A stretch of DNA of 37,503 nucleotides from an uncultured Clostridium sp. (GTDB taxonomy: Bacteria; Bacillota; Clostridia; TANB77; CAG-508): contig CAZHCX010000001.1 of the NCBI GenBank assembly GCA_964531445.1, positions 1-37,503 of the forward strand, read 5' to 3'. This document shows, piece by piece, positions 4,917 through 37,503 of the stretch. The notes beneath the pieces were generated by a model. That model did no database searches and was not told where the DNA came from. It was given only the letters and a program-made list of their open reading frames with translations. The translations under genes and the position numbers were made by a program. How positions within the stretch are numbered: position 1 is the stretch's first letter; every line of letters begins with the position of its first letter.

Positions 4917-4951
4917 GAAAAAAGTTTGAGCAAAAATTACTCAAACTTTTT
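4917..4951. terminator. Bidirectional hairpin terminator, shared by topB (+) and the small minus-strand unit
   Basis: aaaagtttgag (4920-4930) pairs with ctcaaactttt (4940-4950). There is an A-run before it and a T-run after it, so it has a U-tail on either strand. Confidence 0.75.
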
Positions 4952-4970
4952 AATCATTGATTAAATCTTT

Positions 4971-5165
4971 TTACTTTTTAAAATGACAACGTACTTTTCC
5001 ATTTGCTTCATCAACACAATCATTTGGTATTAGTCCAAAAGTTTTAAATGCAGCCTTTTGGCGTTCTTGACTTGATTTTACAAATAGACGTCCTTTGCAT
5101 TCTTAACAATGTACACTACTAGGTGTCTTTAAATTTTTTACTATTACCTTTGGAGATTCAATCAT
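4971..5165 (-). pseudogene. Small Cys-rich ORF (20 + 43 codons) interrupted by an in-frame TAA at 5103-5105 inside a CxxC motif
   Basis: Hand translation of the minus strand gives MIESPKVIVKNLKTPSSVHC*ECKGRLFVKSSQERQKAAFKTFGLIPNDCVDEANGKVRCHFKK*. RBS AAAGGA lies 6 nt before the ATG at 5165. The unit has its own consensus promoter and terminator. Confidence 0.45.
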
Positions 5166-5227
5166 TAATGATCCTTTCTACCTCTATATGTAGAGGCTTT
5201 TTGTACTAAACAACGAGTTACCGAACT

Positions 5228-5256
5228 ATTATAATACAAATTTACATAAAAGTCAA
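5228..5256 (-). promoter_or_regulatory. Consensus sigma-A-type promoter reading leftward into the small Cys-rich ORF
   Basis: On the minus strand: TTGACT (5256-5251), a 17-nt spacer, then TATAAT (5233-5228). Confidence 0.6.
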
Positions 5257-5350
5257 AGAAAAATAACAAAGATTAAAAAAAGTATTTAAAAATTGCTAAA
5301 AAAGGTGTATAATAATAACAATTCATAATTTGAAATTAGGAGAATATAGA

Positions 5351-8300
5351 ATGAATACAATAATAGGAGAACTTGGAAAGTCTCAGAAATTTATAGATTT
5401 AAGTCAAGAAATAGAAAAAACAAAAAGTCCGATATCAATATCGGGCTTAACTAACGTTGCAATGACGGAAATTATATCAGCAATAAATGGATATAATAAA
5501 AAAACAATATTAGTTGTGACATATAACGAAATACAAGCAAAAAAAATGGTAGACAATTTAAAAGTGTTTGGACAAGACAAAGTAGTATTTTTCCCAAAAA
5601 AAGAAATTGTAACTTATGATTACGTAGCCGAAAGCAAAGATTTACCGCATGAAAGAATAGAAGCATTAAACAAAATAAAAGACAAAAGAAATCTAATTGT
5701 AGTAACAACAGTAGAAGCATTAATGCAAAAAATACCATCAAAAGAACAGCTTTACAAAAATGAGTTAGAATTTAAAGTAGGTTCAATTTGTAAGCTAGAA
5801 GATGTAAAAAGAAAATTGGTAAACTTAGGATATTCTAGATATGATTTAATTGAAGGAAGAGGTCAATTTAGTGTAAGAGGTGGAATAATAGATATTGCAA
5901 TTGATGATAAAATAGGAGTAAGAATCGAACTTTGGGGAGATGAAATTGACTCAATAAGAAACTTTAGCATAAATAGTCAAAGATCAATAAATACACTAGA
6001 CAAAGTAAAAATATATCCAGCACATGAATATATACTTGAAGATACAATAGAGAATATCTGTAAAAAAATAGAAAAAACAATAGCAAATGAAAAACAAGAA
6101 GAAATAATAGAAAAAGATATAGAGCAAATAAAAGCAGGAAACTACTTAAGTAAAATTGACAAATACTTTGATGAATTTTATACAGAATCAGCAACATTGA
6201 TAGAATATTTAAGTAAAGAAAGTTTAATAGTATTAGATGAAATCAATAAAATAGAACAAAGAGAAATAAATATTTTACAGGATGTAGGAAATTTAACAAA
6301 AAATTTAATAGAAAAAGAAAAAATAGTACCAGAGGCATTGAGAAATATTTCATCAGCAGAACTTGATGGTTTAGAAGATAAATATCAATTAATATATCTA
6401 GAAAAACAAGATACAGTAACAAGAAAACAAGCAAATAGATATAAATTTGAATATAGAGAAATAAATTATTATAAAAGTGAAATTGAAAATTTATTTGAAG
6501 ATTTAAGAAAATGGAGTAAAGAGAAAAAAAGCGTCTACATAGTTGTTGAATCCAAAGAAAAAGCAAAAAAACTAAAAGAAATATTAGAAAAAGAAAATAT
6601 TTTATGCAAAATTGAAGAAAAATTAGACAAAACAATTATAGTGAAATCAACTGAAAGTGTTGCAACAATAACAGTTGGAAAATTATCAGAAGGATTTGAA
6701 AATTTTGAAATAAATCAAATTGTTGTAACTGCAGATGAATTAGTAGATGGTGGAAAAAAGAAGAAAACATTTGCAAATCAAGCATATAGAGAGGGAGAAA
6801 AAGTAGTATTTGCAGATTTAAAAATAGGAGATTATGTAGTACATAAAAATTATGGAATAGGAATATTTGTAGGAGTAAATACTATAACGGCAGATGGAAC
6901 AACAAAAGATTACCTAAAATTAAAATATAAAGATGATGCAATTCTTTATATACCAACAAATCAATTAGACACAATCAGAAAATACACAGGTGGAGACGCA
7001 ATAAATCCTCCAATAAACAAATTAGGAAGTAAAGATTGGATAAAAACAAAAGAAAAAGTTAAAAATAACTTAAGAGCAGTAGCAAAAGAACTAATTGAAT
7101 TATATGCAAAAAGAGAAAAAATGAGAGGATATGCTTGTGGACCAGATACACCATGGCAACAACAATTTGAAGAAAGATTTCCATATCAAGAGACTGATGA
7201 TCAATTAAGATGTATAGAAGAAGTAAAAAAAGATATGGAAAATCAACGACCAATGGACAGACTACTTTGTGGAGATGTTGGATATGGAAAAACAGAAGTC
7301 GCAATAAGGGCAGCATTTAAAGCTGTAATGGACCACAAACAAGTTGCATATTTAGTACCCACAACAGTATTAGCACAACAACAATACGAAGAATTTAAAG
7401 AAAGAATGAAGGATTTTCCAATAAATGTTGATATTTTAAATAGATTTAAAAGTGCAAAATATCAAAAAGAAGTAACAAAAAAATTAAAATTAGGTGAAGT
7501 AGACATTGTAATTGGTACTCATAGATTATTAGGAAAAGATGTAGAATTTAAAGATTTAGGATTATTAATTATTGATGAAGAGCAAAGATTTGGTGTTAAA
7601 GCAAAAGAAAAATTAAAACAATATAAAACAAATATTGATGTATTAACAATGACGGCGACACCAATTCCGAGAACAATGCACATGTCAATAGTTGGAATAA
7701 GAGATATGTCTGTAATATATGAACCGCCACATAACAGGAAACCAGTTCAAACTTATGTATTAGAATATGATGAAGAAGTAATAAAAGAAGCAATAACAAA
7801 AGAACTAGAAAGAGGAGGCCAAGTATTCTATATTCATAATAGAGTAGATACAATACAAAAAAAGGCAGATGAAATATCGAGGTTAGTTCCAGAATCAATA
7901 GTAAGTTACGCACATGGACAAATGACAGGAACACAAATTGAAGATATAATGAAAGACTTTATAGAGAAAAAGTCAAATGTATTAGTATGTACAACAATCC
8001 TAGAATCAGGAATTGATATTCCAAATGCTAATACCATAATTGTAGAAAATGCAGACAGAATAGGTCTTGCGGCACTTTATCAAATAAGGGGAAGAGTTGG
8101 AAGATCAGACAAACAAGCTTATGCATATATAACATATAGAAAAGATAAGATGCTTACAGAAGAAGGAGATAAAAGACTAAAAGCAATAAAAGAATTCACA
8201 GAATTTGGTTCAGGATTCAAAATTGCAATGAGAGACTTAGAAATAAGAGGAGCAGGAAGTCTACTAGGTGAAATACAATCAGGACATCTAGAACAAGTTG

Positions 8301-8824: not shown

Positions 8825-9616
8825 ATGCAAATAATTTCAAGTAAAGATAATGAATTTATTAAACATATAAAAAAATTAAAAGAAAAGAAATACAGAGATT
8901 TGAATAAAGAATACGTAGTTGAAGGGGTAAAACTAATAAAAGAAGCTATTGAAGAAAAAGCAGAAATAAAACAAATTGTAATATGCGACAATTGTCAAAA
9001 ATCAGATATAATTCCAAAAGCCATAATGTATGAAATTGCCAAATTTGAATGCATTTATGTAACGGAAAACATATTTAAATTAATATCTGATGTTAACACA
9101 CCACAAGGAATACTAGCAGTAATAGGAAGAAATTCAACAGAAGCGGAGATAGATTATAATCAAGATTTAATAGTAGCTTTAGACGATATTCAAGACCCTG
9201 GAAATTTAGGAACAATTTTAAGAACAGTAGATAGTATAGGATTAACCCAAATATTAGTGTCAAAAGGAACAGCTGACAGCTATAATCCAAAGGTTGTACG
9301 TTCAACAATGGGAGCAATATTTAGAGTTAAAGTTATTGAATGCGAAGATTTAGCTAAAACATTAGAAGAAGTGAGAAGACACAAATTTGAACTAGTAATA
9401 ACATCATTACAAACTGAAAACAGCGTATATGACGTTAACTACAACAAAAAAGTAATAGTTATTGGTAATGAAGCAAACGGAGTTGAAAAAGAAATTCAAG
9501 AAAAAGCTGACATAAAAATAAAAATCCCAATGCTAGGAAAAACAGAAAGCTTAAATGCATCAGTAGCAACGGGAATAGTTTTATATGAATATGTAAGACA
9601 AAAAATAAGTAAATAA
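8825..9616 (+). CDS. SpoU/TrmH-family RNA 2'-O-methyltransferase (RlmB/TrmH-like)
   Basis: SPOUT motifs DPGNLGTILRTVDSIG, NPKVVRSTMGAIF, VIGNEANGV and ESLNASVATGIVLYE. RBS AAAGGAG. Confidence 0.85.
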   Translation: MQIISSKDNEFIKHIKKLKEKKYRDLNKEYVVEGVKLIKEAIEEKAEIKQIVICDNCQKSDIIPKAIMYEIAKFECIYVTENIFKLISDVNTPQGILAVIGRNSTEAEIDYNQDLIVALDDIQDPGNLGTILRTVDSIGLTQILVSKGTADSYNPKVVRSTMGAIFRVKVIECEDLAKTLEEVRRHKFELVITSLQTENSVYDVNYNKKVIVIGNEANGVEKEIQEKADIKIKIPMLGKTESLNASVATGIVLYEYVRQKISK

Positions 9617-9618
9617 AC

Positions 9619-9688
9619 GCGACAATGGTCCCAGACTTTTTGTCACAAACATAAAAAAGTTTGACAAAAAAACTGGGACAGTTGTCGC
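9619..9688. repeat. Long, nearly continuous hairpin (about 30 bp of stem) with unusually GC-rich outer arms, between two methyltransferase genes
   Basis: gcgacaatggtcccag (9619-9634) pairs with ctgggacagttgtcgc (9673-9688) with 2 mismatches. The inner stem is tttttgtcacaaac / gtttgacaaaaa. No U-tail follows on the + strand. Confidence 0.6.
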
Positions 9689-9703
9689 AAAAGGAGAAGT
9701 AAA

Positions 9704-10207
9704 ATGAAATTAAATATAGTAATGGTAGAACCAGAAATACCACAGAATACAGGAAATATTGCAAGAACATGTGCTATAACAGGAGCAAAATTACATTTAG
9801 TTCATCCATTAGGATTTAAAATAGATGATAAAACTTTAAAAAGAGCTGGATTGGATTATTGGGATAAACTTGATATTGAAGAACATGACTCTTTGGAAAA
9901 GTTTTTAGAAAAATATAAACCAGAAGAAAAAAACATGTTTTTTGCAACTACAAAAGGAAAAACAAAATATACAGATCCAGATTATTCAAATATGGAGGAA
10001 GTCTTTGTATTATACGGAAAGGAAACAAAAGGGTTACCAGAGGATTTGTTAGAAAAATATTTAGATAAGAAAACAATAAGAATTCCTATGCTTCCAACAT
10101 TAAGATCTTTAAATTTATCAAACTCTGTTGCAATTATAACTTACGAGATATTAAGGCAACATAATTTTGAAGATTTACAAGAAATTAGTACATATTTTGA
10201 TGAGTAA
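9704..10207 (+). CDS. trmL: tRNA (cytidine/uridine-34 2'-O)-methyltransferase, TrmL/YibK-type SPOUT
   Basis: The N-terminus IVMVEPEIPQNTGNIARTCA, then GKETKGLP and RSLNLSNSVAIITYE, plus the ~165-aa size, are typical of TrmL. Confidence 0.88.
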   Translation: MKLNIVMVEPEIPQNTGNIARTCAITGAKLHLVHPLGFKIDDKTLKRAGLDYWDKLDIEEHDSLEKFLEKYKPEEKNMFFATTKGKTKYTDPDYSNMEEVFVLYGKETKGLPEDLLEKYLDKKTIRIPMLPTLRSLNLSNSVAIITYEILRQHNFEDLQEISTYFDE

Positions 10208-10454: not shown

Positions 10455-11093
10455 ATGAAATATTATTCATATAACGACTATATGGATTATACTTTAGGTA
10501 CAAATAATAAAAAACAAAAAATAGTAGAAGAGGATGGTGAAAATTACAGACATAAAAAATATACAAATATAAAAGATAAAGAAACAGATGAAATTATTAA
10601 ATTATTAAAAAATAAACACAATTTAAATCAATTTTTACAAGATTTCTTTAATTTTACAAATTTAGAAAAAATGAAAAATATTAAGATTTGCAATAATAAT
10701 ATTGATGATGAAAATAATAGTTTAATTTACAAATTTGAAAATAATAGTATGTACATATTTATAAAAACAATTAATAAAATAGATGCAAATATAACATATA
10801 AAATGTTTGAAGATTCTTTAAAAATAATTGAAAAATGGAATGAGTGTTTAAATAAAGAAAACAAAAAATATCCTATAGTCATTCCTATTGTAATATATAC
10901 AGGAGATGAAGAATGGAAATCAAGTTATAATAAAAGAGCACAAAAAATTAATTATATTGAATATGAAAAGAATAGAATTAATTTCTCATATAATTTAATT
11001 GACGTTAATTCATTTGAAATGCAACAACTCAAAAAAATGAAATCAAAAGTTGCTAAGAAATTATTAGATAAACATATTAATAAATATTTATAA
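10455..11093 (+). CDS. Short Rpn/YhgA-like (PD-(D/E)xK putative transposase/nuclease family) protein, apparently truncated and catalytically degenerate
   Basis: The layout resembles the Rpn family: an N-terminal FLQDFF segment, a strand (MYIFIKTINKID) at the position of the family's E-x-Q core, and YPIVIPIVIYTGDEEW (family pattern: P-V-I-P-I-V-hydrophobic-Y-x-G-x-x-x-W). Strong RBS AAAGGAGG. Assigned from memory of the family pattern only. Confidence 0.5.
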   Translation: MKYYSYNDYMDYTLGTNNKKQKIVEEDGENYRHKKYTNIKDKETDEIIKLLKNKHNLNQFLQDFFNFTNLEKMKNIKICNNNIDDENNSLIYKFENNSMYIFIKTINKIDANITYKMFEDSLKIIEKWNECLNKENKKYPIVIPIVIYTGDEEWKSSYNKRAQKINYIEYEKNRINFSYNLIDVNSFEMQQLKKMKSKVAKKLLDKHINKYL

Positions 11094-11108
11094 AATAATT
11101 AAAAAAGT

Positions 11109-11137
11109 ATTGACTAATTACCTTATAAGTGATATGT
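11109..11137 (+). promoter_or_regulatory. Probable promoter of the XRE gene
   Basis: TTGACT (11109-11114), a 17-nt spacer, then TATGTT with an upstream TG (extended -10). Confidence 0.45.
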
Positions 11138-11162
11138 TTACATCATGGGAAAGGAGATAAAA

Positions 11163-11507
11163 ATGACACCAGATTATTTTGTAATAGGAAGAAGAATAAA
11201 AGAGGCGAGAATTAATAATAAATTAACACAAGAAGCGCTTGCAGATAAAATAGATGTTTCTGTTGCATTTATGAGTAGAATAGAGAGAGGTAGTTCACAG
11301 GTTAATTTAAAAAGATTAATTCAAATTGCTGAAATTTTAAATGTATCACCAAGCTTTTTGCTAACAGGAAGTAATACTAGATCAAAAGATTATTTAAAAG
11401 AGGACTTTAGACAAGTTTTAGATAAATGTACACCTCAACAACAAAATTTGATTTATAAAATATCAGTACTAGTAAGTAAATTGAATTTTGAAAATGAAGA
11501 AGTGTAA
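11163..11507 (+). CDS. XRE-family helix-turn-helix transcriptional regulator
   Basis: IGRRIKEARINNKLTQEALADKIDVSVAFMSRIERG is a canonical Cro/C1 HTH. The ATG at 11163 follows AAGGAG by 6 nt and is preferred over 11145. Confidence 0.82.
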   Translation: MTPDYFVIGRRIKEARINNKLTQEALADKIDVSVAFMSRIERGSSQVNLKRLIQIAEILNVSPSFLLTGSNTRSKDYLKEDFRQVLDKCTPQQQNLIYKISVLVSKLNFENEEV

Positions 11508-12375: not shown

Positions 12376-13611
12376 ATGTGGGGAAATATAGCCATAGCAT
12401 TTATACTTGCATTTGTAGTAACATTCGTAGCTACACCATATACAATGAAAATTGCCAAAAAAGTAGGGGCAATAGATATTCCAAAAGATGAAAGAAGGGC
12501 ACATAACAAAGCAATACCAAGATTTGGAGGCCCGGCAGTAATATTAGGTTTTTTGCTATCAACAGTATATTTATTAATAGTAATGAGCACAGAAAATTCA
12601 ATAAATTTATTTGGACTACAAGAATATTGGAAAAAGTTATTAGGTTTTTTGGGTGGAATTACAATAATATCAGCATTTTGTATTGTTGACGATATAAAAT
12701 CGATAAAACCAATAGTAAAATTAATTGGACAAGTCTTAGCGGCAATATGTATTGCAGCAAGTGGTATAAGAATTGAAGGCATAGGATTACCATTTTTAAA
12801 TTTTCCAGAGATGCACGAAATTACATCAATTTTAATTACAATAGGATGGATAATAGTTGTAACAAATGCTATTAATTTAATTGATGGACTAGATGGATTA
12901 TCATCTGGGATTTCAGTAATATCAGCAATTTCATTATTGATAATTTTTGTGTTAAATGGCTCATCACTAATATCAATTGTTTTAATAACAGCATTAGCGG
13001 GAGCATTAGTAGGCTTTTTACCATTTAATTTTACACCAGCAAAAACATTTATAGGAGACACAGGATCAAACTTTTTAGGATTTTCATTAGCTGTAATATC
13101 AATACTAGGATCTGCAAAAACATATACAGCAGCAGTAATAGTATTGCCACTAATAGTTCTAGGGTTACCAATATGTGATACTGTGTGGGCGATAATAAGA
13201 AGATTAATAAAAGGAAAATCAATAAAGGCCGTATTTAAAGCAGACAAAGGACATATGCATCACAGATTAGTAGCACAAGGGTTTAGTCAAAAACAAGCAG
13301 TATTAATATTATATGGAATAAGTGCAGTATTTGGAATGTTTGCGGTTATTTTGTGTGATAGTGGAATATGGAAAGCAGTGTCATTTTTATTAATAGTTAT
13401 AGTTGCAATAATAGTAGGATATAAAAACTTTTCAGTTGAAAGAACAGGAAAAGAACAATATGAGTGTACACAATGTAAATACATTTATAATCCAAAGTTT
13501 GGAAATGAAAAAGCAGGAATAGAAAAAGGAACAAAATTTGATGACTTACCAGATGATTGGGTTTGCCCAGTTTGTGGCGAAGGAAAAGATATGTTCCAAA
13601 TACATGAATAA
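12376..13611 (+). CDS. Polyprenyl-phosphate N-acetylhexosamine-1-phosphate transferase (WecA/TagO/MraY superfamily, GT4) with a C-terminal rubredoxin domain fused in frame
   Basis: Polytopic membrane protein with [22 protein letters not shown] and GHMHHRL motifs. The last 50 aa (13459-13608), [15 protein letters not shown]...[16 protein letters not shown], form a complete rubredoxin with two CxxC knuckles. Confidence 0.85.
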
Positions 13612-16922: not shown

Positions 16923-19343
16923 TTGAAAAGACCAATTTTAATTGCTACTATTGGATATATAATAGGTATAATAGTGGGACTATACTTAAAAATTAGTATA
17001 GTCCTTTTTTATATTCCAATAGCGGTAATTTATTTTTTAATAAAGAAAAATAAAAACGAAAACAAAAAATTAAAATTATTTTCAATAAAAAGATATTTAA
17101 GATACATTAAAATCTATATTAATTCAAATGTTTTATTAATCATAATAATTAGTTCAATAATTTCCAATTCAATTACAATTTTAGAAAGTAAAAAATATGA
17201 AGTTATGTACAAAGAATTATCAAGCACAGAAAATATAGCTTTAGTTGCAACAGTAATAAGCAACAAAGAAGAAAAAGAATATTATAATAAATATAAAGTT
17301 AAAACAAAATATAAAAACAAAGATTTAAGGTTTTATATTACTGTAGATAAAAATAAAGATATAAAATATGGAGATAAAATAAAATTAAGTGGAAATTATA
17401 TTCAGCCAGAAAGCCAAAGGAATTATAAAGGTTTTGATTATTCAGAATATTTAAAACAATTAAAGATATATGGAACAATAAAATGCAAAAATATAAAAAT
17501 ATTAAAAGAAAATGATTTAAATACAATAATTTTATTATCAAATAAAATTGAAAATGATATAGAATCAAAAGCAAAAAGAACTTTGGATAAAGAAACATCA
17601 TCAATATTTTTAGGAATTATGTTAGGAAAAACACAAGAAATTGATGAAACAAATAAAGAAAATTTTAGAAATGCAAGTATGGCACATATTTTAGCAATTT
17701 CCGGAATGCATATAACTTATATTATTATAGGTGTAAATCTTACAATAAATAAACTTTTAGGAAAAAGAAAAACACAAATATTAACAATAATAATATTAAT
17801 ATTTTACTTATTTTTAACTAATTTTTCTCCATCAGTAACAAGAGCTGTAATAATGGGAGTATTGATGATAACAGCAAAATTAATTTATAAAAGAAACGAT
17901 ACAATTACATCATTATCTTTATCATTATTATTAAGTCTTGTGTATAATCCATATTTGATTAAAAATTTAGGAATACAGCTATCTTACGGTGGTGTACTTG
18001 GAATTTTGTTATTTAATAATACTATTTTAAAAATATTAAATAAAGTAAAGTTTAAAAAAATTATATCAGTGTCTATTTCAGTTCAAATTTTTATATTACC
18101 AATTAGTATTCTACAATTTAATAATTTAACACCATATTTTTTAATTACTAATTTAATTTTAAGTTTTGTTATTGGACCAATTGTTATCTGTGGGTTTGCA
18201 TATATTATTATGGTTTTAATTAGTGCAAAAATAGCGACAATATTTTCTCCAATAATAACTTTAAGTGTAGGAATATTAACATTTATTTCAAAAATAGGAA
18301 ATCTCCCATTATCCAAAATTTATGTTGCAACTCCAAAAATTAATTCAATTATTTTATATTATTTAATATTATCAATAGTATTTTCAATATATAAAATTTA
18401 TTCGCCAAGAAAACCTAATAATACACAAATAAGAATAAAAAATATAATAGCAATTATAAGAATAAAAGTAAGAAAAAACAAGAAAAAATTAATAAGAATA
18501 ATTACAGTAAGTTTTATTATAATTTTTATTTTTAATATCGTTCCGAAAGAGTTAAGAATTTATTTCGTAGATGTTGGACAAGGTGATTCAACATTTATTG
18601 TTACACCTAAAAACAAAACAATTTTAATTGATGGTGGAGGCAGTAGCAATTTTGATGTTGGAAAAAACACATTATTACCATATATATTAGATAGAGGATA
18701 TACTAAAATAGATACAATAATTATAAGTCATTTCGATAACGACCACATTCGGACGGACTATTAACAGTTATGGAAGAATTACAAGTAAAGAAAGTATATT
18801 TTGCAAAGCAAATTAAAGAATCAGAAAACTACAAAAAATTTTTGGAAATAGCAAATAGAAAACACATAAAAATATATGAAGCAGTAGCAGGGAAGAGAAT
18901 AGTAATAGAAAAAAAATTATATTTTGATATTTTATGGCCGACAAATAACCAAATACAAGAAAATGTATTAAACAACAATTCTATTGTATGTAAATTAAAT
19001 TATAAAAACTTTAAAATGTTATTCACAGGAGATATTGAAGAAATAGCAGAAAAAGAAATATTAAACTATTATAAAAATAAACGGAGAAATACTAAAAGCA
19101 AACATTTTAAAAGTAGGACACCACGGTTCGAAAACATCAAGTACAGAAGAATTTATCAAAATGGTTAATCCTAAATATGCATTAATTGGTGTTGGAAAAA
19201 ATAATAATTTTGGACATCCAAATCCAAATATAATAGAAAGATTAGAATTTTTTAAATGTAAAATTTATAGAACTGATATAAATAAAGAAATATCAATAAA
19301 AATCAATAAAAATAGTAAAATCAAAATAATGTATAAAAAGTAA
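16923..19343 (+). pseudogene. comEC: ComEC/Rec2 DNA internalisation channel gene broken into three ORFs by two compensating frameshifts
   Basis: 16923-18764 (frame 0) holds the membrane Competence domain and the start of the metallo-beta-lactamase domain (VDVGQGDS, SHFDNDHI). 18770-19168 (frame 2) continues the MBL domain (NNNSIVCKLNY, LFTGDIE). 19161-19343 returns to frame 0, and frame 0 already reads ILKVGHHGSKTSS from about 19075. The shift sites are near 18747-18752 and the A-run at 19073-19077. TTG start with AGGAGG upstream. Confidence 0.7.
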
Positions 19344-19381: not shown

Positions 19382-19999
19382 ATGAAAAAAACATTTACAA
19401 TAATTTGTATAATATTAATAATTTTAACAGGAATTATATTTGGAATAATAATTTTTAACAGAAAAGATAAAACAGAAACAAATAAGGGGATAGAAGAAGC
19501 TCAAGAGACACAAAAAATTTCAAAAGAAATAACTGATGAATGTGTAGATGAATATATTGAGTTAAGCCAAGTGCAAGAAGTTGAAGCAACATCATCAGAA
19601 GAGAAAATATCACCAAATTGCAAATTGATTTTAAAAAGATATTATAAAGAATGTGAACATCTAATAAATGAATATATAGATGTACCTGAAAGTTTAGTGA
19701 ATAAAACAAGAAAAGAATTTGAAGAACAATACAAAAATTGGGAGATAGATAAATTCACAAGTACAGAAATTATTATTTATAGAGAATTTGAAAGTAATTG
19801 TGGACAACATTATGTCTTAAGAAATAATGAAGGAAAAATATCAATTTATAAAATAGATGATAATAATGAAGAAAAACTTTTAGAAAATACAGAAATATCA
19901 GTAGAGTATTTAACAGAAAAAGATAAAGTAGAAATACAAAATGGAATAAGAGTTAATGGAAAAGAAGAATTAAATAAAAGATTAGAAGATTTTGAATAA
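19382..19999 (+). CDS. Membrane-anchored protein with a BofC-C-terminal-like region (sporulation-associated?)
   Basis: N-terminal TM helix. The C-terminal segment GQHYVLRNNEGKISIYKID...ISVEYLTEKDKVEIQNGIRVNGKEELNKRLEDFE resembles the BofC_C pattern. Recognised by eye only. Confidence 0.35.
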   Translation: MKKTFTIICIILIILTGIIFGIIIFNRKDKTETNKGIEEAQETQKISKEITDECVDEYIELSQVQEVEATSSEEKISPNCKLILKRYYKECEHLINEYIDVPESLVNKTRKEFEEQYKNWEIDKFTSTEIIIYREFESNCGQHYVLRNNEGKISIYKIDDNNEEKLLENTEISVEYLTEKDKVEIQNGIRVNGKEELNKRLEDFE

Positions 20000-23111: not shown

Positions 23112-23144
23112 AAATTGATAATTAAAATTTTAGGAGAAAAAGTT

Positions 23145-23993
23145 ATGAAATTAGAACTTCCGGAAAAGGAAAAATTAAATAGAAAAAGAATAGCACTATT
23201 TACAGTTATATTAATAATAATCATAATAGCTATAACTGTAGTTGTAGGAGTGCAAATTCTTGGAAATGACGTTGTAAACAATATGTTTGGAATAAGCAAA
23301 ATAGTAAAAAGAACAGAAGAGGAAAAGGCAGAATTAAAAGTTAATTTTGAAAATATAATAGACAACCAATTTCAAGATAACAATAATTATGAAGTAAAAA
23401 AAATAGAAGATGATAAAAATCTTATTTTTACAAGTTACAGCAAAGAAGAAAAAAATGAAAAATATGAAATAAATGTAAATTTACCATATATAAATATAAA
23501 AAATAAAACTGTGCAAAATTTCAACAATGAAATTGAAAACACATTTAAAGGAAAAACAGAAGATATTTTAAATAACCCAGACAAAAACGCAATATATACT
23601 GTAAAATATAAAGCGTATGTAGAAAATAAAATTTTATCAGTAATAATCTATTCAGATTTAAAACAAGATACATCAGCTCAAAGAGATATTATTCAAACAT
23701 TTAATTATAATCTAGAAGAAAATAAAGAATTAACATTAGAAGATACATTAAAAATTTATGAACTTGATAAAAAAGATACTCAAAAAATAATAAATGATGA
23801 TATACAAGCAGAACAAAAGAAATCGGAAGATTTAATACAATTAGGATATAATGTTTTTTCTAGAGATTTAAATAGTGAAATATATAAGATAGAAAACATC
23901 AAAGAATATTTTATACACAATGGCAACATATATATAATATTTGCCTATGGAAACACAAACTTAACAACACAAATGGATATAGTAATAATATAA
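23145..23993 (+). CDS. Membrane-anchored hypothetical protein (DUF4163/DUF3298-like pattern, low confidence)
   Basis: The ATG at 23145 follows AGGAG by 8 nt. One N-terminal TM helix. The segment YEINVNLPYINIKNKTVQNFNNEIENTF resembles RsiV/PdaC-type extracellular domains. Confidence 0.6.
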   Translation: MKLELPEKEKLNRKRIALFTVILIIIIIAITVVVGVQILGNDVVNNMFGISKIVKRTEEEKAELKVNFENIIDNQFQDNNNYEVKKIEDDKNLIFTSYSKEEKNEKYEINVNLPYINIKNKTVQNFNNEIENTFKGKTEDILNNPDKNAIYTVKYKAYVENKILSVIIYSDLKQDTSAQRDIIQTFNYNLEENKELTLEDTLKIYELDKKDTQKIINDDIQAEQKKSEDLIQLGYNVFSRDLNSEIYKIENIKEYFIHNGNIYIIFAYGNTNLTTQMDIVII

Positions 23994-32719: not shown

Positions 32720-34534
32720 ATGAACAACCAAAAAATAAGAAACGTAGCCATAATCGCACACGTTGACCACGGAAAAACAACATTAGTAGATGCACTATTA
32801 AAACAAAGTCATATATTCAGAGAAAACGAACAAGTACAAGAGAGAGTAATGGACTCAAACGACCAAGAAAAAGAAAGAGGAATAACAATACTTTCTAAAA
32901 ACACATCAGTAATGCACGGAGACATTAAAATAAACATAGTTGATACACCAGGACATGCTGACTTCGGTGGAGAAGTAGAAAGAGTTTTAAAAACGGTTGA
33001 TGGTGTTGTACTTTTAGTTGATGCATTTGAAGGAGCTATGCCTCAAACAAGAGAAGTTCTTAAAAAATCATTAGCATTAGGATTAAAACCAATCGTTGTT
33101 ATCAACAAAATAGACAGACCTGGAGCACAACCAGACAAAGTTGTAGACCAAGTTATCGAATTATTCATTGAATTAGATGCAACAGATGAACAATTAGACT
33201 TCCCAGTTGTATATGCATCAGCAAAAAATGGAATTGCAAAAATGGATTTAGCAGATGAAACAACAGATTTATCTTGTTTATTTGAAACAATAATAAATAC
33301 AATAGAAGCACCAAAATGTGATTTAGATGGTTACCCACAAATGCAAGTATCTAACATAGATTATGATGACTATGTTGGAAGAATGGGTGTAGCAAGAGTT
33401 GAAAGAGGAACATTTAAAGTTGGAATGCCAGTAAGTATATGTGGTAAAGAAGACAAAGTTACTCAAGGAAGAATTGCAAAACTATATACACACGTTGGAC
33501 TTAAAAAAGTTGAAGTTGAAGAAGTTGGAGCAGGAGATATTATAGAATTTGCTGGACTACCAGACATCAACATTGGAGATACAGTATGTGATTTTGAACA
33601 TCCAGACAAAATGCCATTTGTTGACATTGATGAACCAACAGTTACAATGACATTTAGTGTAAATAATGGACCATTTGCAGGTAAAGAAGGACAATTCATC
33701 ACATCAAGACATATAAGAGATAGATTATACAAAGAACTTGAAAGAAACGTTTCATTAAGAGTAAAAGATGGAGAAACTCCAGACTCATTTGAAGTATCAG
33801 GAAGAGGAGAACTTCACTTATCAGTATTAATCGAAACAATGAGAAGAGAAGGATTTGAACTATTAGTTTCAAGACCAAAAGTTATCTTTAAAGAAATTGA
33901 TGGTGTTAAATGTGAACCAATCGAATTATTAGTATGTAATGTACCAGATGATTGCGTAGGAAACGTAATTGAAAAATTAGGTAGAAGAAAAGCTGAAATG
34001 ACAAATATGGAACCTGCAGAAGCTGGACATACAAAAATAGAATTCAGAATTCCTGCAAGAGGAATAATTGGATATAGAACAGAATTCCTTACAGACACAA
34101 AAGGTGAAGGAACAATGAACCACATATTTGATTCTTACGAACCATATAAAGGTGATATCCAATCACGTGTTAGAGGAACAATTATAGCATTTGAACCTGG
34201 TAAATCAGTAACATACGGATTATACAACGCACAAGACAAAGGTGATTTATTTATCGGTGCTGGTGTAGAAGTATACGAAGGAATGATTGTTGGATTAAAC
34301 TCTAGAGGAGAAGATTTAGCAATTAACGTATGTAAAGAAAAACACTTAACAAATACTAGAGCATCTGGATCAGATGAAGCATTAAGATTAGTTCCACCAA
34401 TTCAAATGTCACTTGAAAAAGCTATTGAATTTATTCAAGATGATGAATTAGTAGAAGTAACACCAAAATCAATCAGATTAAGAAAGAAAATATTAGACTC
34501 AAAAGAAAGAGAAAGAGCTAATAGAAGTAAATAA
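32720..34534 (+). CDS. typA: Translational GTPase TypA/BipA
   Basis: IRNVAIIAHVDHGKTTL, DTPGHADFGGEVER and NKIDR, with EF-G-like domains and a BipA-specific C-terminal region. Confidence 0.96.
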   Translation: MNNQKIRNVAIIAHVDHGKTTLVDALLKQSHIFRENEQVQERVMDSNDQEKERGITILSKNTSVMHGDIKINIVDTPGHADFGGEVERVLKTVDGVVLLVDAFEGAMPQTREVLKKSLALGLKPIVVINKIDRPGAQPDKVVDQVIELFIELDATDEQLDFPVVYASAKNGIAKMDLADETTDLSCLFETIINTIEAPKCDLDGYPQMQVSNIDYDDYVGRMGVARVERGTFKVGMPVSICGKEDKVTQGRIAKLYTHVGLKKVEVEEVGAGDIIEFAGLPDINIGDTVCDFEHPDKMPFVDIDEPTVTMTFSVNNGPFAGKEGQFITSRHIRDRLYKELERNVSLRVKDGETPDSFEVSGRGELHLSVLIETMRREGFELLVSRPKVIFKEIDGVKCEPIELLVCNVPDDCVGNVIEKLGRRKAEMTNMEPAEAGHTKIEFRIPARGIIGYRTEFLTDTKGEGTMNHIFDSYEPYKGDIQSRVRGTIIAFEPGKSVTYGLYNAQDKGDLFIGAGVEVYEGMIVGLNSRGEDLAINVCKEKHLTNTRASGSDEALRLVPPIQMSLEKAIEFIQDDELVEVTPKSIRLRKKILDSKERERANRSK

Positions 34535-34594: not shown

Positions 34595-34709
34595 TATAAT
34601 AGGAAATTAAAAAGAATTTCCTATTATATAAAAGCTAACTGCACACAAAATTATTTCATAATTTTGGCGCACGAACAAATCAGAAAATCTACGATTTTTT
34701 GATTTGTTC
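34593..34709. repeat. Three further hairpins or palindromes packed ahead of the O-methyltransferase gene
   Basis: Perfect 16-bp arms tatataataggaaatt / aatttcctattatata (34593-34630). A 9-bp stem caaaattat / ataattttg (34646-34666). A 16-bp stem gaacaaatcagaaaat / attttttgatttgttc (34673-34709) with one G-U pair. Confidence 0.6.
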
Positions 34710-34727
34710 TATGAAAGGATAAGAAAT

Positions 34728-35321
34728 ATGAATAAAGAAGAATTAGAAAAAATAAAACGAAAAGCGTTGGAAGACCATATTCCAATAATTATGGACGACA
34801 CATTAGAAGTAATAGAAAAAGAATTAAAACAAAATCCACCAAAAAAAATACTTGAAATTGGTGCGGCAGTTGGATATTCAGCAATGTGCTTTTCAGAATT
34901 TTTAGTAGAAGGCGGAAGAATAGACACAATAGAAAGAGATGAAGAAAGAATAGCCGAAGCAAAAGAAAACTTCAAAAAAGTTGGAGTACAAGACAAAATT
35001 AAATTATATGAAGGTGATGCTGTAGAAATATTACCAACACTAGATGACAAATATGATATGGTTTTTATTGATGCGGCAAAAGGAAAATATCCATTTTTCT
35101 TAAAAGAATCATTAAGAATGATAAATGAAAAAGGAATAATATTTGCAGATAACATTTTATATAAAGGATATGTTATGAGTGATTATAACAAACACAAACA
35201 AAGAACAGCTGTTAGAAATTTAAGGGAGTACATAAAAGAGGTATCAGAAAATCCAAATTTAGAAACAGAAATTTTGGAAGTAGGAGATGGATTGGCAATA
35301 AGCAAAATAAAAGAGCAATAA
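34728..35321 (+). CDS. Class I SAM-dependent O-methyltransferase (YrrM/TrmR-like, catechol-OMT fold)
   Basis: ILEIGAAVGYS (SAM motif I), FIDAAKGKY and the ~200-aa size. The ATG at 34728 follows AAAGGA by 8 nt. Confidence 0.78.
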   Translation: MNKEELEKIKRKALEDHIPIIMDDTLEVIEKELKQNPPKKILEIGAAVGYSAMCFSEFLVEGGRIDTIERDEERIAEAKENFKKVGVQDKIKLYEGDAVEILPTLDDKYDMVFIDAAKGKYPFFLKESLRMINEKGIIFADNILYKGYVMSDYNKHKQRTAVRNLREYIKEVSENPNLETEILEVGDGLAISKIKEQ

Positions 35322-35330
35322 AATAAAAAG

Positions 35331-35369
35331 TAGAGAATTTGAAAACTATTTTTCAAATTCTCTATTTTT
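35331..35369. terminator. Bidirectional terminator shared by the O-methyltransferase and the convergent RSH gene
   Basis: tagagaatttgaaaa (35331-35345) pairs with ttttcaaattctcta (35350-35364), with T-runs after it on both strands. It overlaps the last codons of the RSH gene. Confidence 0.8.
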
Positions 35370-36512
35370 AGATTTTGAACATTCTCTTAATTTAGAACTT
35401 AAATCTTTAAAACTCATATTTAAAGCCTGCTCTAATTCATATTGCTCATTAGTGTATAAATCATATGTAATAGGGACTCTATCTTTATCAATGTGAGTAT
35501 GGTCAGTTTTTTCAGAATTGAAGAAATGGTAAAATCTATTTTCAAAAGGAACTTCAAACATCTCGTAATTTCCATCAGAATTTTTAAAAGCAGTAACTTC
35601 AAAATATTTAGGAATTCTATTTGGAGATTTATCATTCAATAATCTTGGCTTATATTTGTTATGAGCAATTTCACCTGAAGACTTAGACTCCATTTCTAAA
35701 GTACGAATTTGAGTCTCGTAAGTAAAATCCTTATTTTTAATATTTTCCATTAATATATGTATAGATTCATATCCATTATCTTTAGGGACAGAAATATAAT
35801 CCTTAGTTATATATTCTTTATCAGAATTAGATTTATTAGGTGCAACATCAGTTTTCATTCTAAAATTCGTGTTGATTCTAAAATCATATAAAGCTTTAGC
35901 AACATCATCACACATTCTTCTTAATTCTTGTTCATCTTGTTTGTATAACTCTTCAAGTTTTTCAGGATTGTTTGCATATTTTTCTTTTAATAAATCTCTT
36001 TCAGGGCTTTTTATAGAAGATAAAATAATTCTTTCAGCAATTATATCCTTAATATATGGAGTTTTACCGTTGGAAATATTTTTGCTCAATTTTTCCATAT
36101 AACTATCAAAAGATTTAATCCTTACTTTGATATTAAAAACTAAATTTGGAAATTTTTCTTGTAAAAACTGTCTCTCCAATAAAGAATATTTTTTAATTTC
36201 ATCAACATAAGAATTTATATATGTATGATATCTAGAAAGTAATTCAGCATAATCGTTTCTTTTATGCAATTCAGAATAATCTAATTCCTCTAATGGAAAT
36301 TGAAATAATAAATGTTTTTCTTTATCTGAATCTTTTAATTTTATATTTAAATAAGAACCATCTGGTGAAACAGTTACTTGAACATTTTCAGGTATAGGGA
36401 ATAAACCTAAGCTTGATAATATTGTATTTGTTTTATCTATATTTTGAGTAGGAACTTCTAACCTACTTGAAACATCATATTTTAATGATGATTTAAAATT
36501 GTTATTTTCCAT
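35346..36512 (-). CDS. RelA/SpoT-homologue synthetase-domain protein: small-alarmone-synthetase-like, with N- and C-terminal extensions (toxSAS-like candidate)
   Basis: The motifs occur in canonical order: VRIKSFDSYMEKL (R-x-K-x3-S), DIIAERIIL, GYESIHIL, ETQIRTLEME (E-x-Q-x-R-T) and AHNKYK (H-x2-YK). RBS AAAGGAG, with its own promoter and terminator. Confidence 0.75.
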   Translation of the reverse strand: MENNNFKSSLKYDVSSRLEVPTQNIDKTNTILSSLGLFPIPENVQVTVSPDGSYLNIKLKDSDKEKHLLFQFPLEELDYSELHKRNDYAELLSRYHTYINSYVDEIKKYSLLERQFLQEKFPNLVFNIKVRIKSFDSYMEKLSKNISNGKTPYIKDIIAERIILSSIKSPERDLLKEKYANNPEKLEELYKQDEQELRRMCDDVAKALYDFRINTNFRMKTDVAPNKSNSDKEYITKDYISVPKDNGYESIHILMENIKNKDFTYETQIRTLEMESKSSGEIAHNKYKPRLLNDKSPNRIPKYFEVTAFKNSDGNYEMFEVPFENRFYHFFNSEKTDHTHIDKDRVPITYDLYTNEQYELEQALNMSFKDLSSKLRECSKSKNREFEK

Positions 36513-36547
36513 AATTTTCTCCTTTGATTTTTATAATGCCAAATGTT

Positions 36548-36576
36548 ATTATAACAAAAATATATTGATAAATCAA
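36548..36576 (-). promoter_or_regulatory. Promoter of the RSH gene
   Basis: On the minus strand: TTGATT (36576-36571), a 17-nt spacer, then TATAAT (36553-36548). Confidence 0.6.
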
Positions 36577-36617
36577 GTAAAAATAGAAAAAATATTATGT
36601 AAAATAATGTCGAAAGA

Positions 36618-36646
36618 TTGACAATATGGTAGAATAAAGTTATAAT
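36618..36646 (+). promoter_or_regulatory. Consensus promoter of the U32 peptidase gene
   Basis: TTGACA (36618-36623), a 17-nt spacer, then TATAAT (36641-36646). Confidence 0.65.
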
Positions 36647-36701: not shown

Positions 36702-37503
36702 ATGAAAAAAATAGAATTATTAGCACCAGCAGGATCATTTGAAAAAGCAAAAACAGCATTTAGATATGGTGCAGATGCAGTATATTGTGGAACATCATCA
36801 TTATCACTAAGAACAAGAGCAGATATGGACAATGATGATTTAATAAAAACAATAGAATATGCACATAGCATAGGAAAAAGAGTACACGTAACTTTAAATA
36901 TATTTGCATGGGACGATAAATACGAAGAACTAATAGAAATGGCAAAAATGTTAAATGAAGTAAAACCAGATGCAATAATAGCAGCAGATGGTGGAGTAAT
37001 AGACACACTTAGAGAATATGCACCAAATGTACCAATACATGTAAGTACTCAAGCAAATGTTATAAGCTCTAGAGATGCATGGTTCTGGAAAAAGAACGGA
37101 GCCGAAAGAATAATAATGGCAAGAGAAATAAACAAAGAACAACTAAAATATATAATGAAAAACAAACCAGAAGACCTAGAAGTAGAAATGTTTGGACACG
37201 GATCAATATGTTTTGCGTTTTCAGGAAGATGTTTCTTAAGTGACTTTATGTGTGGAAGAAGTGCAAACTTAGGAGATTGTGCACAAAGTTGTAGATGGTC
37301 ATACAATCTATATGCAGAAGAAAAAAATAATCCAGGACAATTAATGCCAATAGAAGAAAGTGAATACGGCACAGCAATATTTTCATCAAAAGACTTATGT
37401 TTAATAAAAGAAATACCAGAAATAATAGATATGGGAATAGATAGTTTAAAAATAGAAGGAAGATTAAAAACAGAATATTACCTAGCAAGCGTAATAAACG
37501 CAT
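36702..37503 (+). CDS. Peptidase U32 family protein (YrrN/YrrO/YegQ-TrhP-like). The 3' end lies outside the window.
   Basis: This ORF is absent from the supplied track because it runs off the window. Hand translation from the ATG at 36702 (RBS AGGAGG) gives MKKIELLAPAGSFEKAKTAFRYGADAVYCG...HVSTQANV...EVEMFGHGSICFAFSGRCFLS...GDCAQSCRW...LKIEGRLK, which are typical U32 motifs. Confidence 0.9.
   Translation, partial: MKKIELLAPAGSFEKAKTAFRYGADAVYCGTSSLSLRTRADMDNDDLIKTIEYAHSIGKRVHVTLNIFAWDDKYEELIEMAKMLNEVKPDAIIAADGGVIDTLREYAPNVPIHVSTQANVISSRDAWFWKKNGAERIIMAREINKEQLKYIMKNKPEDLEVEMFGHGSICFAFSGRCFLSDFMCGRSANLGDCAQSCRWSYNLYAEEKNNPGQLMPIEESEYGTAIFSSKDLCLIKEIPEIIDMGIDSLKIEGRLKTEYYLASVINA

Follow-up and report, generated by a model that had tools for sequence, protein, structure and literature searches.

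RelA/SpoT homologue (RSH) enzymes span a range from housekeeping alarmone synthetases to toxins that modify tRNA, and to our knowledge most of the ~30 subfamilies of small alarmone synthetases (SAS) are uncharacterised; published names of RSH subfamilies include cloRel and fpRel. Here we describe a SAS gene on the minus strand of a 37,503-nucleotide stretch of DNA from an uncultured Clostridium sp. (GenBank assembly GCA_964531445.1, contig CAZHCX010000001.1, positions 1 to 37,503), which is called the window below. The closest described systems are the housekeeping enzymes RelP (SasA/YwaC) and RelQ (SasB/YjbM), the long Rel/RelA proteins, and the toxic SAS (toxSAS), among which CapRel is found in prophages and defence islands and has a sensor domain that belongs to its least conserved parts (PMC9712102). 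Targeting of tRNA has been linked to a basic patch at the active-site exit together with a reduced acceptor phosphate patch (PMC11782079; bioRxiv 2021.04.30.441581). As for the surroundings of the gene, yrrM (trmR), yrrN (trhP2) and yrrO (trhP1) of Bacillus subtilis form one operon for mo5U34 synthesis (Sakai et al., 2019, PMC6599085), which bears out the adjacency of trmR and trhP assumed in an earlier note on this DNA. That note took the gene for a fused toxin-antitoxin or defence module of the toxSAS kind that had landed between the two. The comparisons reported here point instead, with moderate confidence, to a lineage-specific, vertically inherited SAS subfamily with novel N- and C-terminal elements.

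The gene forms a transcription unit of its own, and the open reading frame, promoter, ribosome-binding site and bidirectional terminator recognised in the earlier note are all present. The gene, the parts of its product and its signals are as follows.

35346..36512, minus strand: SAS gene, a small RelA/SpoT homologue with the synthetase domain only (open reading frame of 388 aa plus stop, ATG start)
36258..36512, minus strand: N-terminal alpha/beta element, residues 1-85 (AlphaFold2 model: helix 22-34; strands 44-48, 54-59 and 70-73)
35643..36257, minus strand: SYNTH core, residues 86-290 (invariant columns in 27 members; profile and fold matches to RelP, Rel, RelA and RelQ)
35349..35642, minus strand: C-terminal extension, residues 291-388, ~98 aa (AlphaFold2 model: beta-hairpin, helix NRFYHFFN, long helical hairpin)
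36576..36548, minus strand: SAS promoter, TTGATT-17-TATAAT with a TG extended -10 (promoter scan score 10/12)
36519..36525, minus strand: SAS ribosome-binding site AAAGGAG, 6 nt 5′ of the ATG (direct sequence reading)
35331..35364, both strands: bidirectional hairpin resembling an intrinsic terminator, common to the convergent methyltransferase and SAS genes (15-bp stem, 3 G-C pairs)

The hairpin, which has T-runs on either strand, overlaps with the stop codon of the SAS gene and starts 10 nt past the stop of the methyltransferase gene. Among the intergenic sequences of 13 loci, the extended -10 is kept 5′ of the SAS gene in most, the recurring element being ATTATA(C/A)CA on the plus strand, or TGnTATAAT on the SAS strand.

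The sole significant Pfam domain of the protein is RelA_SpoT (PF04607), which scores 54.2 bits against a gathering threshold of 27. Its match runs over residues 131-288 for 108 model positions, which implies an internal insertion of ~50 residues, and the Pfam scan found no HD hydrolase, TGS or ACT domain. The motifs follow one another in the order VRIKSFDSYMEKL, DIIAERIIL, GYESIHIL, ETQIRTLEME and AHNKYK, as had been read before. The core begins with N-terminal helices, followed by RxKxxxSxxxK (R131, K133, S137, K141) and DxxAxR (D156, A159, R161); a helical insertion at ~168-216 then separates DxxAxR from the G-loop PKDNGYESIH (K244, Y248, S250, H252), and the distal motifs are ExQIRT (E266, Q268, R270, T271) and AHxxYK (H284, Y287, K288). 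The catalytic contexts are intact, and the synthetase motifs are invariant in 27 homologues of only 39-77% identity. About 45 invariant residues, all catalytic ones included, persist at identity as low as 39%, and several residues of the extensions are invariant in the same alignment too.

The AlphaFold2 model is confident (pLDDT 85, pTM 0.80). The N-terminal element reaches a pLDDT of ~88-92 from residue 30 onward; it has no Pfam or PDB match and is missing from short relatives of 243-281 aa. In the C-terminal extension the beta-hairpin and the first helix are common to the short relatives and the terminal helices are the least conserved (conservation in the region 0.51 and 0.26). When modelled alone, the C-terminal ~100 residues again give a beta-hairpin, a helix and a helical hairpin (pLDDT 79), for which a search of the PDB returned no structural neighbour (best E = 1.5), retrieving neither CapRel 7ZTB nor ATfaRel2.

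From 5.8 billion proteins, 127 relatives were retrieved. Almost all are unnamed metagenomic proteins of 340-400 aa, with alignments that cover 97-100% of the query at identities as low as 36%. Since the relatives align over their full length, the N- and C-terminal extensions are conserved parts of the family and not random tails; the extra residues counted in the earlier note (now ~85 and ~98 aa at the two ends) are thus real family features. Among 1.84 billion representative proteins, a profile search gave only 25 matches at E<=1e-30, below which the family merges gradually with SAS-like proteins of 230-300 aa; these do not have the N-terminal element and are themselves unclassified. All genomic matches, Clostridium sp. 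CAG:389 among them, come from metagenome-assembled genomes (MAGs) of uncultured gut Clostridia (goat, rabbit, mouse and human). The short relatives (243-281 aa) are without residues ~12-85 and without the terminal helices, and in them too the catalytic motifs are mostly kept. In short forms (L024 4998-5762, L025, P0263-P0268) the donor-site arginine of DxxAxR is replaced by lysine or serine (D-N-F-A-N-K, D-I-F-A-K-K, D-F-F-A-S-K); the equivalent arginine in CapRel and FaRel2 stacks on the adenine of ATP. One of them, the 281-aa protein of locus L037 (5001-5846; P0268), carries a 28-residue Lys-rich insertion in the G-loop (PKTKKQKPQKTVKAKSNIRKKYVASQKITEQIIYQALH) and matches Pfam weakly.

Comparison with the housekeeping enzymes shows both kinship and distance. 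Like RelP and RelQ, the protein has a single SYNTH domain without HD, TGS or ACT and shares their catalytic motifs, and its gene is chromosomal, monocistronic and without an antitoxin; RelP (6fgk, 6ewz) and RelQ (5ded) also give its best profile and fold matches. With the family profile against the PDB, RelP 6fgk came first (E = 6.6e-10), followed by Rel (6e-8), RelA (6e-6) and RelQ (3e-5 to 3e-4), and all 21 matches at E<=10 are (p)ppGpp synthetases, with no other chain. Foldseek of the AlphaFold2 model ranked RelP (6ewz, E = 7e-6), the N-terminal domain of Rel and RelQ first (E 7e-6 to 1e-3). However, the protein is longer (388 aa against ~210-230 aa, or ~210-237 aa for RelP), has the N-terminal alpha/beta element and the ~50-residue insertion between beta2 and the G-loop, and ends in a beta-hairpin and helical hairpin; its structural alignments with these enzymes show ~17% identity. 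Against the RelP structure the identity is 17% and the TM score normalised to the query 0.29, and the RelP matches, best in the PDB as they are, span only ~50-110 residues (E 1e-6 to 7e-10). On the RelQ equivalog model NF053588 it reaches 23.7 bits against a cutoff of 320, over residues 230-309 only. By these comparisons the protein is neither RelQ (YjbM/SasB) nor RelP (YwaC/SasA), which agrees with the earlier note, where the housekeeping SAS are described as markedly shorter. With long Rel/RelA it is matched through the G-loop, ExQIRT and the AHxxYK helix (E 6e-8 to 6e-6) and partially by TIGR00691, but it lacks the hydrolase and C-terminal regulatory domains and scores 39.9 bits where the family cutoff is 499.

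A different picture would follow if the protein were a single-chain, autoinhibited effector of the toxSAS kind, built on CapRel logic with non-homologous parts and fixed in the core genome. One or both extensions would then keep the ATP donor site occluded, and this block would be lifted by a trigger, for instance a phage protein or stress signal; the released enzyme would pyrophosphorylate the 3′-CCA of tRNA or make (pp)pApp, halting growth, and its fast evolution would reflect an arms race. We consider this unlikely, but it has several features on its side. The gene is solitary, has its own strong-looking promoter and no partner open reading frame, and conserved extra domains flank an intact SYNTH core. 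Like CapRel(SJ46), the product is one polypeptide of similar length (388 aa against 373 aa) with a SYNTH-type core and a C-terminal extension, no separate antitoxin gene is present, and the peripheral regions (C-terminal helices, N-terminus and insertion) are the least conserved, as is the sensor domain of CapRel. In addition, helix 323-331 of most relatives carries F-Y-H-F-Y, which includes YxxY. The window protein, however, reads Y-H-F-F in this helix, and the short forms have no such motif.

Direct comparison with CapRel did not support a relationship. As a positive control, the true CapRel(SJ46) gene from phage SJ46, corresponding to PDB 7ZTB, scored 290 bits on the PADLOC model PDC-S33 over its full length (residues 11-370), whereas the SAS protein scored 29.6 bits over 40 residues only (232-271). 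Of 60 unrelated SAS-like proteins, 52 show a weak match of this kind. PDC-S33 (PDLC04999) is an unnamed candidate model and in effect the CapRel family model; it also weakly matches generic RSH cores at E 1e-7 to 1e-17, so that such weak matches cannot be read as a defence signal. In hhalign, the SAS family and CapRel(SJ46) shared only 46 core columns around the G-loop and ExQ (26% probability), with no C-terminal columns. Unlike CapRel(SJ46), then, the protein has homology limited to ~46 core columns, no match to the pZFD fold, no YxxY in the window copy and an extra domain at the N-terminus as well as at the C-terminus; the C-terminal extension alone resembles neither pZFD nor ATfaRel2. With FaRel2/ATfaRel2, PhRel, PhRel2, FaRel and Tas1 the protein shares the RSH SYNTH catalytic core. 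Unlike the bicistronic FaRel, FaRel2, PhRel and PhRel2, its gene has no adjacent conserved small gene, and nothing around it suggests a secretion system or a phage; the PDB searches brought up neither FaRel2 nor ATfaRel2, and Tas1 appeared only in Foldseek at E = 0.02. The protein belongs neither to the CapRel family nor to the bicistronic toxSAS systems, and the fused toxin-antitoxin assignment made earlier is not upheld. The PDC-S33 result has a practical use as well, as a control: the model is that of CapRel and gives weak generic matches to any RSH core.

The chromosomal position of the gene is fixed, and its neighbours, all on the plus strand, are the following.

32720..34534, plus strand: BipA/TypA translational GTPase gene, a constant member of the BipA-methyltransferase-SAS block (NCBIfam TIGR01394, 936 bits; cutoff 757)
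34704..35321, plus strand: O-methyltransferase family 3 gene, TrmR/YrrM-like, the convergent neighbour (Pfam PF01596, Methyltransf_3, 104 bits)
36702..37503, plus strand, running past the window end: Peptidase_U32 gene for a TrhP1 (YrrO)-like tRNA U34 hydroxylase, the divergent neighbour (Pfam PF01136, 240 bits)
36618..36646, plus strand: promoter of the U32 gene, a perfect TTGACA-17-TATAAT back-to-back with the SAS promoter (promoter scan 12/12)

In every SAS-bearing contig examined, at 60, 54, 52, 39, 39 and 36% identity, BipA, the methyltransferase, the opposite-strand SAS gene and U32 occur in the same order, and the genes beyond them vary. The short-form relatives sit in the same slot, which is kept at identities from 61% to 30%. 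The SAS gene lies tail-to-tail with the methyltransferase gene, at a distance of 2-77 nt (248 nt in one case), and usually head-to-head with the U32/TrhP gene, at 145-230 nt; no conserved small partner gene with a ribosome-binding site occurs in these gaps in 11 loci, just as none had been seen in the window. Loci retrieved through the SAS gene are a biased sample, and a second entry was therefore made through the methyltransferase, with 47 contigs from two species. Among the 23 contigs read for the allele 100% identical to that of the window and the 24 for a 93% variant, every contig that reaches the slot has a RelA_SpoT gene.

The surroundings are equally unlike those of a mobile module. The remainder of the window holds housekeeping genes (LeuRS, topoisomerase, Mfd, SpoU methylases, Hsp33, ComEC, Clp ATPase, HtrA and the GerA operon), and no defence-island, prophage or mobile context surrounds the SAS gene in it. 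Relatives of the family were found neither on IMG/VR viral contigs nor in 50,697 phage records; PHROGs gave only a 23.7-bit core match to a family of unknown function, and among BFVD structures there were only weak core matches to phage RelA/SpoT proteins. A fixed core-genome locus instead of a prophage or defence island, one slot across the clade and its populations with no presence/absence polymorphism, and the missing viral and phage relatives all speak against a CapRel-like effector. Because the slot is conserved in related genomes, the SAS gene is an ancient, fixed insertion. The split between trmR and trhP described earlier is therefore real, but the picture of a mobile gene that recently landed there fails, as the comparison of loci places the gene in the same slot in its relatives.

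The gene evolves much faster than the genes around it. Across loci, identity to the window copies is 84-95% for BipA, 69-92% for the methyltransferase and 69-93% for U32, but only 30-61% for SAS. Its divergence does not track that of the neighbours; in locus L009, for example, BipA is 95% and the methyltransferase 91% identical while SAS is 39% identical. Between species, dN is 0.14-0.58 for SAS against 0.004-0.09 for BipA, the methyltransferase and U32 (~4-100x), and omega is 0.18-0.50 against 0.01-0.16; these values are approximate, as dN/dS was obtained by NG86 with dS near 1, that is, near saturation. Omega of SAS is below 1 everywhere, and the gene is thus under purifying selection while it diverges at an unusually high rate. 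Divergence peaks at the two ends of the protein (first 30 and last 50 residues) and in the insertion at 171-195, and the core itself is only 63-66% identical. Within a species no hypervariability was found (dN = 0 in one species). For SAS, dS (0.8-1.4) is higher than for BipA, the methyltransferase and U32 but similar to that of a nearby acyltransferase (0.9-1.2) in the same genome pairs. Allele replacement or recombination was considered as a source of the divergence; given this similarity to the acyltransferase it need not be invoked, and fast evolution in situ would suffice, a tentative conclusion because the NG86 estimates are near saturation.

The fast divergence is most simply explained by a non-essential regulator under weak constraint; a sensor shaped by conflict is also possible. 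That SAS, with an omega of up to 0.5, evolves fastest in a locus that is frozen in other respects is what an arms race would lead one to expect, but the dN of zero within the species and a near-neutral, variable family charge do not fit a self-inhibited toxin well. If, on the other hand, the divergence reflected dispensability, the gene would be under relaxed constraint and heading to loss. An omega of 0.2-0.5, several-fold above that of the neighbours, is consistent with this, and so are the Lys-rich G-loop insertion of P0268 with its weak Pfam match and a frameshifted copy in L025. This last copy (4948-5670, from a Lachnospiraceae-labelled MAG) is interrupted near ...GKSRKYL*/IYDIFANKYII and represents a pseudogene or an assembly error; it adjoins U32, and an MscS channel gene takes the place of the methyltransferase in this locus. 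Decay is nevertheless very improbable: the reading frame is intact in every other locus and in the 47 population contigs, the ~45 invariant residues with all catalytic ones are retained at great divergence, omega stays below 1 throughout, the promoter is conserved, and the model is confident over all domains.

For the preferred reading, a vertically inherited SAS subfamily, the following course of events may be proposed. The SAS gene would have entered between trmR and trhP, in opposite orientation, in an ancestor from which this clade of uncultured, spore-forming gut Clostridia of low GC content descends, and would have been retained there since. The gene is predicted to be transcribed alone, from the conserved sigma-A extended -10 promoter back-to-back with that of trhP, and transcription would stop at the hairpin common to trmR. 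The product would be a monofunctional pyrophosphokinase of the RelA/SpoT family that transfers the beta,gamma-pyrophosphate of ATP to the 3′-OH of a purine nucleotide, the acceptor most likely being GTP, GDP or GMP and the product (pp)pGpp. The N-terminal alpha/beta element and the C-terminal hairpin and helices would be lineage-specific additions that, by analogy with the C-terminal helices of RelP and RelQ, probably regulate the enzyme or mediate its oligomerisation.

Several points weigh against this. First, a solitary gene whose product of ~390 aa has additional domains at either end of SYNTH bears a superficial resemblance to a single-chain, self-regulated toxSAS. Second, divergence so much faster than that of the neighbours, with 36-61% identity between species against 79-95%, is atypical for housekeeping RelP and RelQ and resembles that of conflict-driven genes. 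Third, the best PDB matches of CapRel itself are RelQ and RelP, so that being closest to RelP discriminates weakly; the argument from the closest PDB relatives against a toxSAS was downgraded for this reason. Fourth, the acceptor specificity of the enzyme cannot be read off its sequence. The G-loop PKxNGY with K237 and K244 was considered as evidence of a guanosine acceptor and rejected, as a G-loop of this type also occurs in tRNA-targeting CapRel(SJ46), which has PKPSGY. Because CapRel shares both features, neither the G-loop motif nor the proximity to RelP proves a guanosine acceptor. What is still informative is that the family profile matches long Rel/RelA and never CapRel, FaRel2 or Tas1. 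As weaker points, an enzyme of the alarmone type is favoured by this match to long Rel/RelA through the AHxxYK helix, unlike CapRel, and by the lack of a conserved basic character in the family, whose isoelectric points run from 5.8 to 9.0 (median 7.0).

The neighbours themselves suggest another possibility. The TrmR label of the methyltransferase is drawn from its family and from synteny (PMC6599085), and its start is probably the ATG at 34728, as 100%-identical homologues have 197 aa and homologues overall 195-197 aa. The full-length U32 orthologue in locus L027 has a U32_C domain, and its best NCBIfam match is TrhP (335 bits, below the cutoff of 534). The clade locus (window 36702-37503, loci L001-L036) holds a single U32 gene of the TrhP1/YrrO type, with U32 and U32_C and ~410 aa, and no TrhP2/YrrN paralogue adjacent to it at the window locus or in L001-L036. 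B. subtilis requires both TrhP1/YrrO and TrhP2/YrrN. The consensus promoter that had been ascribed to the U32 gene is there, and directly 5′ of its -35, and including it, stands TTATGTAAA-N14-TTGACA (window 36595-36623, plus strand). The window holds one copy of this motif, where chance predicts 0, and 9 of the 42 fetched loci have it in the corresponding position; lying in the divergent promoter region, it may serve as an UP element or as the site of a regulator.

Selection may have acted on the gene order itself, coupling an alarmone synthetase to BipA, TrmR and TrhP: its product would act locally on BipA, or the gene would be co-regulated with hydroxylation and methylation of tRNA U34 through the divergent promoter region, or both. 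Persistence of the BipA-methyltransferase-SAS block while the outer flanks change is in keeping with this, as are the back-to-back SAS and U32 promoters inside 189 bp, the recurrence of TTATGTAAA 5′ of U32, and the nature of BipA, a ppGpp-binding GTPase whose binding moves from the 70S to the 30S with ppGpp (PMC5207388). However, the genomes are closely related, as the BipA identities indicate, and their shared order may be merely inherited; the SAS gene, being encoded on the other strand, shares no transcript with its neighbours; L037 has two genes, ThyX and a CmpB-like gene, between SAS and U32, and L025 is without the methyltransferase; and an Rfam scan across the window found no riboswitch or other element. 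A search for tRNA genes likewise gave nothing relevant. We give such coupling a low probability, somewhat below that of the CapRel-like effector.

Less probable again is a domesticated, self-regulated RSH enzyme directed at translation, in which the fast-evolving extensions gate the SYNTH core and which, by pyrophosphorylating tRNA 3′-ends or through an alarmone acting on BipA, would serve as a core-genome stress or phage-abortive switch among bipA, trmR and trhP. If this improbable proposal were true, the gene would be a functional counterpart of CapRel, fixed and non-mobile, made from unrelated accessory domains. Were the minority reading as a toxSAS-like effector correct, it would be the first analogue of a fused toxSAS that is non-mobile and resides in the core genome. 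On the preferred reading, that of an inherited SAS subfamily, the locus illustrates that a solitary, long and fast-evolving SAS need not be a defence module. Throughout this clade of uncultured gut Clostridia the gene belongs to the fixed core genome, and the two accessory elements of its product have no fold match in the PDB. If it is the clade's own source of alarmone, it bears on growth control in abundant uncultured gut organisms. The main interest will be for RSH specialists and for researchers on uncultured gut Clostridia.

Elsewhere in the window, on the plus strand, open reading frames of 132, 205 and 292 aa (18770-19168, 19382-19999 and 23115-23993) have no Pfam match at E<=1e-8. At 10455-11507 a YhgA-like putative transposase gene (PF04754, 212 aa) is followed by one for a small HTH_3 protein, amid housekeeping genes, and tandem SpoU-family RNA methyltransferase genes (263 and 167 aa) lie directly 3′ of mfd at 8825-10207. 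At 12376-13611, a 411-aa fusion joins a glycosyltransferase of family 4 (MraY/WecA-type) to a C-terminal rubredoxin domain, an unusual pairing.

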